Sequence record: PV841870.1
Reading direction: 5' to 3' (one strand)
From: Escherichia phage Pandora71
DNA length: 44,696 nt
The translations under genes were made by a program, and so were the position numbers. The notes beneath the pieces are model-generated. The model worked only from the letters and a program-made list of their open reading frames with translations. It searched no databases and was not told the DNA's origin. Positions 29,670-30,039 of the stretch are shown one piece after another. The stretch's first letter is position 1; each line of letters begins with the position of its first letter.

Positions 29670-29720
29670 GGTTTGTCTCCTTTTAGGGGAGGCAGTATTG
29701 CCTCCCGATGTGGTTGTGTG

Positions 29721-29990
29721 TTATTTCTTGGCCCACTCCAGAGTTTTACACTCGTAGTCTTCTTCGGCCTGGCTGAGCACACACGTCATCATGTGCTCCG
29801 CATTGTCAAATCCGCTGGATTTGGCGTATTTATCTGCTCCTCCAGCCTCTGCAATCTCGGCGTTTAGCGCCTCTACAGAATGCAGTTCGATATTATTAAG
29901 ATAAGGGCTTGAAACGCCTTCTTTGTCTTCAATCATTGACCAGAATGCGTTGATTTTGTTGTCCAGGTCCGCACTAATGAATTGTTTCAT
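29721..29990 (-). CDS. hypothetical protein (about 89 aa)
   Basis: ATG 29990 with AAGGTG RBS; track ORF extends to 30119. Confidence 0.5.
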   Translation of the reverse strand: MKQFISADLDNKINAFWSMIEDKEGVSSPYLNNIELHSVEALNAEIAEAGGADKYAKSSGFDNAEHMMTCVLSQAEEDYECKTLEWAKK

Positions 29991-30039
29991 AATATTCACC
30001 TTTTTGTTGCGGGAGGCGGTATTGCCTCCCGATGTGGTT

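Follow-up and report, generated by a model that had tools for sequence, protein, structure and literature searches.

Conserved upstream repeats (CUPs) have been known since the 1990s as control elements of the leading-region regulon of IncN plasmids, to which antirestriction and establishment genes belong. To our knowledge, the role of the hairpin just past the CUP promoter, which is the best-conserved part of the CUP, has never been worked out. The CUP elements of IncN plasmids such as pKM101/R46 were reportedly described by Delver and Belogurov in 1997 (J Mol Biol 271:13). The head of each leading-region operon carries a CUP with a promoter and an ArdK-binding site (PMC5371602, PMC5027574, PMC6289460). 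Since the operators of the ArdK family are direct repeats at the −35 box (PMC9723621), the hairpin itself is not an ArdK site. Homologous recombination between CUPs has been invoked for inversions, translocations and a 5.2-kb deletion (PMC5371602, PMC5027574, PMC3490853).

Promoter-early stem-loop (PeSL) cassettes have been described in the T4-type phages RB49 and phi1 (Arbiol et al. 2010, PMC2839356; Comeau et al. 2014, PMC4122927). They carry a promoter and mediate homologous recombination in T4-like phages (PMC2839356). Stabilizing stem-loops at the 5′ terminus of a transcript are known from the ompA and papA 5′ untranslated regions and from the T7 phi10 leader (Emory, Bouvet & Belasco 1992, via review PMC3997798). 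More generally, E. coli mRNAs are stabilized by 5′ secondary structure, because RppH and RNase E require the 5′ end to be single-stranded (PMC3997798).

Here we describe a short hairpin element of an E. coli phage which, judged by its sequence, is a member of the CUP-core family and not a full CUP. It behaves evolutionarily like a PeSL cassette and, in its predicted RNA role, would resemble the ompA-type 5′ stem-loops.

Results

Two copies of a stable hairpin on the minus strand

The window, by which we mean the whole 44,696-nt stretch of DNA analyzed here, is the genome of a Dhillonvirus, an E. coli siphovirus. A 4-kb query centered on the element's surroundings retrieved 158 phage records, nearly all of which were E. 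coli siphoviruses of ∼44 to 45 kb. An initial annotation of the window had pointed to an element repeated at positions 29688 to 29720 and 30001 to 30038. We found the same objects, with the limits lying a few bases away from those given, as two copies of a 29-nt element:

30039..30011, minus strand: copy A of the 29-nt element, AACCACATC-GGGAGGC-AATACC-GCCTCCC
29715..29687, minus strand: copy B of the 29-nt element, with loop AATACT, starting 5 nt past the stop codon of the 90-aa open reading frame
30031..30024 and 30017..30010, minus strand: stem of copy A, 8 bp when the C-G pair is counted
30023..30018, minus strand: loop AAUACC of copy A

The element can also be written as AACCACATCGGGAGGCAATAC(C/T)GCCTCCC. 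The pattern AACCACATCGGGAGGCARTAYYGCCTCCC matched exactly twice in the window, both times on the minus strand, and 0 of 100 shuffles matched it even when 3 mismatches were allowed, which confirms the twofold occurrence. With a covariance model built from relatives, the two copies scored 38.3 and 36.3 bits, and the next-best match reached 11.6 bits. Further copies, for which a computational search had been suggested, did not turn up: neither a pattern search with 3 mismatches nor the covariance model with filters off found a third copy in the window.

Both copies were predicted to form stable hairpins with the stem GGGAGGC/GCCUCCC, the loop AAUACY and minimum free energies of −16 to −18 kcal/mol. 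Their folds also stood out in the proposed comparison with shuffled controls (z-scores of −4.3 and −4.0 for the two copies, relative to dinucleotide shuffles). Each copy lies shortly before a start codon, the gap from the end of the element to the ATG being 20 nt for copy A (ATG at 29990) and 17 nt for copy B (ATG at 29669), in line with the earlier estimate of 15 to 25 nt.

The initial annotation had further argued that these hairpins are not simple terminators, and our results agree. No U tract is present 3′ of copy A or copy B on either strand (the sequences that follow are GCAACAAAAAGG and CTAAAAGGAG), neither copy was among the calls of the terminator scan, and the missing U tract directly after the hairpin distinguishes the element from an intrinsic terminator. 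Two other hairpins of the same block had been cited in the same context. The first, GCGGGC-TTCG-GCCCGC at 29137..29122, indeed lacks a U tract, whereas the second, at 31953..31930, exists but has one. A search against Rfam gave no family at gathering score across the whole window, and the interval from 29600 to 30120 gave noise only (E above 5).

Copy A adjoins a predicted promoter

A consensus scan placed a predicted promoter directly upstream of copy A, where its boxes can also be read from the sequence, and the gene downstream of copy B could be assigned to a Pfam family:

30068..30040, minus strand: sigma70-type promoter TTGCAA-17-TATATT, with predicted activity
30068..30063, minus strand: −35 box TTGCAA, separated from the −10 box by a 17-nt spacer
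30045..30040, minus strand: −10 box TATATT, with copy A beginning on the next base
29148..29669, minus strand: 173-aa gene (DUF6378, Pfam), with the Shine-Dalgarno sequence AAGGAG at ∼29681..29676

That one of the copies directly follows a promoter, as had been noted earlier, thus holds for copy A, which adjoins the −10 box of TTGCAA-17-TATATT. This promoter-like site overlaps the stop codon of the gene upstream, which codes for a 156-aa phosphatase-like protein. Within the site, TGCAACCAA occurs twice in direct orientation, at 30067..30059 and 30055..30047. Using the promoter consensus alone, we predict that transcription starts at the A at 30033, the 7th nucleotide past the −10 box, which is preceded by a C. 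When folded from this predicted +1 position, the RNA begins with AUC, which is followed by the stem; the hairpin takes up nucleotides 3 to 24, and the Shine-Dalgarno region AAAAAGGUG is unpaired. The promoter geometry hence predicts an overhang of 2 to 3 nt before the copy A hairpin at the 5′ end of the transcript. In the predicted transcripts that were folded, the stem starts at nucleotides 2 to 4, with the Shine-Dalgarno sequence unpaired.

Copy B has no −35 and −10 boxes at the conserved distance, and no promoter was called there. On a transcript beginning at copy A, it is expected to form an internal (intercistronic) hairpin.

The two copies bound an inserted single-gene cassette

Alignment of the window with the phages slur05 and Oekolampad revealed an insertion between the two copies:

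29687..30010, minus strand: 324-bp insertion relative to the empty site of slur05
29721..29990, minus strand: inserted 90-aa gene (MKQFISADLDNKINAFWSMIEDKEG...), which belongs to an ORFan family

The insertion consists of the leader gcaacaaaaaGGTGaatatt, the 90-aa ORFan gene, 5 nt (cacac) and copy B. In slur05, the promoter and a single element are followed by ctaaaaggagacaaaccATG, which is exactly the window sequence minus the 324 bp. It follows that the two copies are the direct repeats on either side of an inserted cassette. The full 401-bp interval was common only to TH11, TH13 and McMelon, with 99.5% identity, and 20 further records covered only its flanks. The two-copy state is confined to four near-identical genomes, all other Dhillonviruses having a single copy. 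Neither this arrangement of the copies as direct repeats flanking an inserted gene nor the relation of the element to the plasmid CUP core had been part of the initial annotation.

The 90-aa gene had no match in Pfam. Its homologues, with 34 to 60% amino acid identity, were found only in other phage groups, where they lie within promoter/stem-loop cassettes:

Vequintavirinae: rV5 gp162, behind the annotated promoter P168 and a hairpin of its own
Krischvirus: phi1 ORF266, behind a classical stem-loop/promoter cassette (PeSL)
Tlsvirus: a further homologue of the 90-aa gene
Viral contigs of ∼50 kb: homologues with a stem-loop inside the promoter spacer

None of these homologue loci (in rV5-like phages, phi1, Tlsvirus or the ∼50-kb contigs) carries the element, their promoter/stem-loop arrangements being different ones, and the immediate donor of the cassette was not found. 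The leader that follows copy A, GCAACAAAAAGG, is nearer to the leader ACCCACAAAAAGG of ABPH49, a member of the Vequintavirinae, than to the resident Dhillonvirus leader.

Copy B is best explained as a by-product of cassette insertion through recombination at the element. Events of this type have been documented between the CUPs of plasmids and between the PeSL cassettes of T4-like phages. The route may have been a single crossover with a circular cassette or, alternatively, an unequal exchange between element-bearing genomes. We infer that the element doubles as a homology patch for cassette exchange.

In these respects the locus resembles the PeSL cassettes. At copy A, though not at the promoterless copy B, a sigma70-type promoter and a G/C-rich stem-loop precede a small gene; the copies flank an ORFan that is present or absent among close relatives, as seen from the 324-bp cassette and the empty site of slur05 and other phages, and supply homology through which single genes can be gained or lost; one subclass of PeSLs has its stem-loop downstream of the −10 box; and the family of the inserted 90-aa gene sits in a classical PeSL in phi1. 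However, there is no sequence homology between PeSLs and the phage element. PeSL stem-loops are effective terminators that lie mostly upstream of or within the promoter, whereas the hairpin described here falls within the predicted transcript and lacks a U tract. Moreover, genomes contain many PeSLs, in contrast to an element that occurs once per genome, and twice in the window.

The module is conserved in Dhillonviruses and its stem covaries

A promoter-hairpin module was found before the 173-aa gene in Oekolampad and in 14 of 15 Dhillonvirus loci from IMG/VR. Its order is TTGCAA-17-TATAGT or TATATT, then 7 to 9 nt ending in RTC, the hairpin, a Shine-Dalgarno sequence and the start codon. We conclude that the module is ancestral to the Dhillonviruses at the position of the 173-aa gene. 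Its stem varies by lineage (GGGGGC/GCCCCC, GGGGC/GCCCC or GGGAGGC/GCCTCCC) around a constant loop, RAUAYN, and the majority of Dhillonviruses have the stem GGGGGC, unlike the window.

Covariation was assessed in a gapless alignment of 24 distinct sequences, in which the instances from all sources were pooled. In this alignment 81% of the cells were paired, and changes on both sides of the stem were seen in 5 of the 8 pairs; the pair formed by columns 9 and 22, for example, was G-C in 11, A-U in 10 and C-G in 1 of the sequences. The observed covariation score was reached by 0 of 500 column shuffles, and slid registers scored far lower. These features show stem pairing to be under selection. The initial annotation had made its proposal depend on conservation in relatives, and there the element is indeed kept, with stems that covary.

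On the sense strand, G·U wobbles (5 cells) outnumbered A·C mismatches (2 cells), which weakly favors the transcribed strand as the one that folds. The A·C mismatch occurred in two Dhillonvirus variants and corresponds to a G·T wobble on the opposite strand.

The element matches the core of plasmid CUPs

Of the complete E. coli genomes searched, 202 contained the core, at 901 places in all (median per genome, 5), and 894 of these places were plasmid-borne. In PLSDB, 883 records contained it at 3,828 places, most of the records being conjugative plasmids of Enterobacterales. The IncN plasmid pZ0117EC0032-1 carries seven copies, which have the form TTGACT-17-GATAAT-taaat-CATC-GGGAGGC-AA(T/C)ACC-GCC(A/G)CCC-...-AGGAG-ATG. 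They precede ccgD, a DUF905 gene, an LPD29 gene, ccgC, ccgAI and other small genes, and lie near ardB and ardR. These plasmid copies are CUP elements, ccg being short for CUP-controlled gene.

The core of the window is identical at 23 of 24 positions to the IncN1 CUP core, CATC-GGGAGGC-AA(T/C)ACC-GCC(N)CCC. When four IncN plasmids, with backbones of the IncN1 and IncN2 types among them, were searched with a model built from the phage copies (R1), each yielded 4 to 8 copies that scored at least 23 bits. In all CUP copies of these four plasmids the stem begins 9 nt past the −10 box, and the core is present 4 to 10 times per IncN plasmid. When the CUP consensus sequences of IncN1 and IncN2 were compared, identity was 27 of 30 positions in the core, 31 of 48 in the upstream flank and 9 of 30 in the downstream flank. 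The fourth stem pair is an A·A or A·G mismatch in most plasmid copies, whereas in phages it is a Watson-Crick pair (A-U, G-C or C-G).

The likeness between the two is not limited to the sequence of the core. Like the CUP hairpin, the phage element lies 9 nt past a sigma70-type −10 box and ahead of a Shine-Dalgarno sequence and an ATG; each stands in front of small genes of mobile elements and is a substrate for homologous recombination through which these genes become rearranged. Nevertheless, several features separate the phage element from a full CUP. CUPs are from 100 to more than 400 bp long, with ArdK operators at the −35 box, whereas their match to the phage element begins at the −10 box and stops where the hairpin ends. 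Operator-like repeats of a different sequence, TGCAACCAA, are present in the window, which has no homologue of ArdK or ArdR. CUPs head leading-region operons in 4 to 10 copies per plasmid, in contrast to two copies in the window and one in other phages, where the element belongs to a phage gene block. The stem in the window is fully paired, unlike that of most CUP copies with their A·A or A·G mismatch, and the window lacks the additional small hairpin, GCCGGTATCGGC, that is found in IncN1 CUPs.

No homologues of the window's open reading frames, or of the genes downstream of the element in other phages, were found on the IncN plasmid L137. A search of the full-text literature returned no paper that ties CUPs to bacteriophages. 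An origin of the element from host chromosomes could be ruled out: among 185,579 species representatives, the perfect-stem phage type had 0 matches, and the CUP type was limited to small, plasmid-like contigs.

The same core occurs in unrelated phages

Further instances of the core were collected by BLAST and by pattern scans. All cores whose context was inspected lie in unannotated intergenic DNA, 9 nt past a −10 box with a good −35 box 17 nt upstream of it, and are followed by a Shine-Dalgarno sequence and an ATG. The 9-nt spacing of the stem was observed in the window and in Pondi, PTXU04, ABPH49, ChuuTotoro, pEp_SNUABM_01, Kaldavass, Serratia BF and the contig L046. Apart from the Dhillonviruses, the element-bearing phages are the following:

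Xuquatrovirus: Pondi and PTXU04, stem GGGAGGC with GCCTCCC or GCTTCCC, 79-aa gene downstream
Vequintavirinae: ABPH49, stem GGGAGGC with GCCTCCA, 116-aa gene downstream
Vequintavirinae: Serratia phage ChuuTotoro, stem GAAAGGC with GCCTTAC, 134-aa gene downstream
Vequintavirinae (Henunavirus): pEp_SNUABM_01, stem GGGCGGC with GCCGCC, 87-aa gene downstream
Jumbo phages: Kaldavass, Serratia BF and a 371-kb IMG/VR contig, stem GGGAGGC with GCTTCCC, gene of 133 to 135 aa downstream
Jumbo phages: five Erwinia pEa_SNUABM phages, included on the basis of the core match alone
Unclassified: the 34.5-kb IMG/VR contig L046, stem AACAGGC with GCCTGAT

The −35 boxes and spacers of these phages are unrelated, and the likeness begins at the −10 box. 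The genes behind the element belong to at least four unrelated families; of the downstream genes that were compared with Pfam, only the 173-aa gene had a match (DUF6378). The gene found in ABPH49 and ChuuTotoro is homologous to the jumbo-phage gene, and a comparison is therefore possible in this case. The proteins share ∼39% amino acid identity and the elements 22 of 24 positions, which means that the element is conserved far above its linked gene. The core is identical at 22 to 23 of 24 positions among the window, the CUP, Pondi, ABPH49 and Kaldavass. This near-identity across phage families could in part reflect recent horizontal transfer rather than selection.

A looser scan of IMG/VR with CATC-N4-GGCAATAYYGCC gave 107 matches. 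When these were filtered for stem complementarity, only slur05 and the new, promoter-linked L046 were convincing. The remaining matches lay in coding sequence and were rejected as due to chance.

Discussion

In our assessment, the promoter-proximal leader hairpin probably represents the transcribed end of a portable promoter-leader module and serves to protect the 5′ end of the mRNA, possibly in combination with sequence-specific recognition. Host RNA polymerase would start at the A seven bases past the −10 box, so that the mRNA would begin with pppA-U-(C), followed by a G+C-rich stem of 7 to 8 bp and the loop AAUACC. A stem-loop at this terminal position would leave too few unpaired nucleotides for RppH and for the 5′-end sensor of RNase E, and the downstream message would be longer lived. 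The Shine-Dalgarno sequence, 5 to 12 nt past the stem, would remain free. Such a protected 5′ end would suit genes that need fast expression after entry of the replicon. The 24-nt core shares homology with that of the CUPs and with the single copies behind sigma70-type promoters in Xuquatrovirus, three Vequintavirinae lineages and Serratia/Erwinia jumbo phages. Of the mechanisms considered in the initial annotation, RNA stability is the best supported, but it would be conferred by a hairpin with which the transcript begins and not by a processing site.

The predicted geometry is that of the ompA-type stem-loops, with a stable hairpin 2 to 3 nt from the 5′ end and an unstructured Shine-Dalgarno sequence behind it. 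However, ompA-type structures act independently of their sequence, whereas the present element keeps its loop and flanking bases in replicons that are unrelated to one another. A plain protective hairpin needs neither a conserved loop nor the AUC, and 5′-end protection is therefore not the whole story. Since the primary sequence, including the loop, is conserved far above the flanks and the linked genes, the hairpin is probably recognized in a sequence-specific manner as well, most plausibly by a component of the host. The mismatch at the fourth pair of the plasmid copies weakens the stem, and it hints at a recognition feature or at a function on the DNA level. An RNA-binding regulator had also been suggested initially. 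A dedicated, phage-encoded one is unlikely, because the core occurs in unrelated phages and in IncN plasmids and because the window, or the genes behind the element in other phages, had no proteins in common with the IncN plasmid L137, but a host factor may act in this way. Copy B is not at a 5′ end, so that 5′ protection is not directly applicable to it; situated inside the transcript, it may shield the downstream part of a message that has been cleaved, or it may have no effect.

A bolder version of this proposal, which we put forward only tentatively and hold to be doubtful, is that the 24-nt core AUC-GGGAGGC-AAUACC-GCCNCCC constitutes a dedicated, sequence-specifically recognized "entry-phase" leader. 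It would be common to the establishment and antirestriction operons of conjugative plasmids and to virulent-phage genes, and its reader would be a component of the host (RNA polymerase, a ribonuclease or an RNA-binding protein), with rapid and protected expression in the naive cell as the result. Such a leader would move between plasmids and phages.

The hairpin might instead be mainly a binding site for a sequence-specific protein, either as RNA or as duplex DNA from +3 to +25, through which a host factor or a CUP regulator such as ArdR would control "first-in" genes, with stability being secondary. The core is near-invariant in the CUPs of IncN1, IncN2 and IncN3 and in five phage lineages, down to its loop AAUACC and to the A found at the position of the mismatch, and flanks and linked genes diverge around it. 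Such a site would also be consistent with the retention of the mismatch by plasmids and with the occurrence of the element on mobile elements only, never on the chromosomes of the species representatives, and the function of CUP repeats has "not been studied in detail" (PMC6294495). Nevertheless, we consider this explanation rather unlikely. No candidate protein is common to the genes downstream of the element in the window and other phages and to the IncN plasmid, the known operators of the ArdK family are the −35 repeats and not this hairpin (PMC9723621), and the stem differs (GGGGGC) in most Dhillonviruses. Furthermore, phage stems covary with Watson-Crick pairing kept, as would be expected of an RNA helix more than of a fixed operator in DNA.

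It is improbable that the duplication is a recombination scar in which copy B, and perhaps the hairpin generally, has no function as RNA, the sequence simply riding along with a good promoter. Copy B lacks a promoter and is limited to the four near-identical genomes, other Dhillonviruses have a single copy, and recombination at similar repeats is documented, all of which such a scar would explain. It would not account for the stem covariation or for conservation of the core above the promoter spacer, the −35 box, the flanks and the linked proteins, which argue for selection on the hairpin. Given the covariation, a functionless scar is unlikely for the element overall; it is possible for copy B.

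Very little speaks for a nut- or put-like antitermination signal, or for an attenuator or terminator acting on the polymerase just past the promoter. The promoter-proximal position, a conserved single-stranded motif with a hairpin that recalls boxA-boxB, and terminator-like hairpins further along the same gene block are all compatible with this explanation. However, the stem is not followed by a U tract, and no terminator lies between the element and the genes behind it. Unlike a lambdoid nut site, the element has a hexaloop, AAUACY, and neither a boxA-like sequence nor a GNRA-like pentaloop, nor has it a match in Rfam; and it is found in plasmids and unrelated phages that have no common proteins where these were compared.

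RNase III substrates such as the T7 early sites comprise roughly two helical turns of duplex. The analogy that had initially been drawn to these sites fails, and processing by RNase III or another endonuclease can be practically dismissed: the hairpins are intergenic, lie between consecutive genes and have no U tracts, but their stems of 5 to 8 bp form no extended duplex and are far below the ∼20 bp of RNase III substrates, and copy A is predicted at the extreme 5′ end of the transcript, with nothing upstream to remove.

Some further identities were rejected on inspection. The sequence ATTAACC...GGGAG resembles a T3 promoter, but its spacing is 5 nt and not the 9 nt of promoters of the T3/T7 type. 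An IHF site, a sigma70 pause element and pairing to 16S rRNA were also considered, and none of these was conserved across the instances.

The distribution of the element in phages and the evidence for the hairpin as a selected unit appear to be new. The core is found at the same promoter distance in at least five unrelated phage lineages, with compensatory changes in its stem and with conservation above that of the genes behind it. This would make the hairpin itself, and not repressor operators alone, the functional unit, and the element would work without the plasmid's own regulators. Plasmids and virulent phages would accordingly draw on a common pool of promoter-leader modules. The window provides a clean natural case in which a siphovirus gained a single-gene cassette at such a module, with the empty site preserved in a close relative, and it would extend modular shuffling of the PeSL and CUP type beyond T4-like phages and plasmids.

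Repeated 9-mers at phage promoters and two further hairpins

Exact matches to the 9-mer TGCAACCAA or its complement TTGGTTGCA number 12 in the window, compared with approximately 0.3 occurrences expected by chance. Most of these sites form pairs that lie within or adjoin sigma70-like promoters of either strand, and overlap with the -35 box (TTGCAA) is frequent.

Sites of the 9-mer TGCAACCAA/TTGGTTGCA (both strands, exact match)
41-80
800
3299-3330
10753-10775
26862
30047-30067
31957-31982
38555-38579
41460
44276-44373

At the promoter directly preceding the upstream copy of the 29-nt hairpin element (sites at 30047-30067), the two sites are arranged as a direct repeat both in the window and in the related phage slur05; in most dhillonviruses, they form an inverted repeat, TGCAACCAA-TAGG-TTGGTTGCA, at the same promoter. 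These 9-mers are probably operators for a phage regulator. A Pfam search revealed no helix-turn-helix (HTH) protein among ten small leftward open reading frames (ORFs).

Two further hairpins were analyzed.

31930-31995, minus strand, second promoter with hairpin; ATTGGTTGCAT present as two repeats; -10 box, TATCTT
29122-29137, minus strand, hairpin GCGGGC-UUCG-GCCCGC between the 173-amino-acid (aa) and 191-aa genes

Directly after the -10 box, the second promoter carries a 10-bp hairpin, AAGGGTGTCC-GGTT-GGACGCCCTT, followed by a U tract, and this hairpin is kept with covariation in other dhillonviruses (GGGTGTTCC-GAAG-GGAACGCCC). Since its 5' arm begins upstream of the predicted start site, the hairpin could act as a terminator for transcripts reading through from the upstream HNH gene, with transcripts of the second promoter itself escaping. 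A terminator/promoter overlap of this layout resembles that of the promoter-early stem-loop (PeSL) cassettes of T4-type phages. The hairpin between the 173-aa and 191-aa genes has a UUCG tetraloop without a U tract, is unchanged in all 15 dhillonvirus loci examined, and may act as a barrier for an mRNA 3' end or for processing.

Leader variants and alternative pairing

The phosphatase-like gene, promoter, and hairpin are all missing from one dhillonvirus contig (L021, 2370-2503); there, another ORF immediately precedes the 173-aa gene, whose Shine-Dalgarno region (aaaggagacaaaccATG) is identical to that of the window. The loop motif AAUAC was found again at single-stranded leader positions adjoining Shine-Dalgarno sequences, a recurrence that may be due to chance.

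Window 31925-31920, UUUUUAAUACCUGGAG, after the second-promoter hairpin
L008-L020, about 2485-2495, GGGUAAUACUGUG, preceding the 173-aa gene of many dhillonviruses

In the CUP repeats of IncN1 plasmids, ATTGCC and GCCGGTATCGGC lie downstream of the hairpin and can base pair with two segments of the first hairpin, GGCAAU and AUACCG. Such pairing would produce an alternative structure or pseudoknot. The sequence at the same position in IncN2 CUPs is unrelated. The CUP loci concerned are L137, 3733-3800, with the other CUP copies, and L139.

Protein families associated with the cassettes

A family of 116- to 135-aa proteins (MFTIETRADV... or MATFTTNSFNDV...), without a match in a Pfam search, is linked to the element in Vequintavirinae and in Serratia/Erwinia jumbo phages, with approximately 39% identity between members of the two groups. 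The family of the inserted 90-aa ORFan is distributed across Vequintavirinae, Krischvirus, Tlsvirus, and ∼50-kb viral contigs.

Loci of the two families
116- to 135-aa family: L002 1554-1904; L027 1248-1652; L003 1558-1965; L007; L005
90-aa family: window 29721-29990; L024 1501-1773; L135 656-928; L136 623-907; L141-L157

Because the promoter/stem-loop arrangement preceding the 90-aa ORFan differs from group to group, this family seems to travel habitually as a passenger in promoter/stem-loop cassettes.
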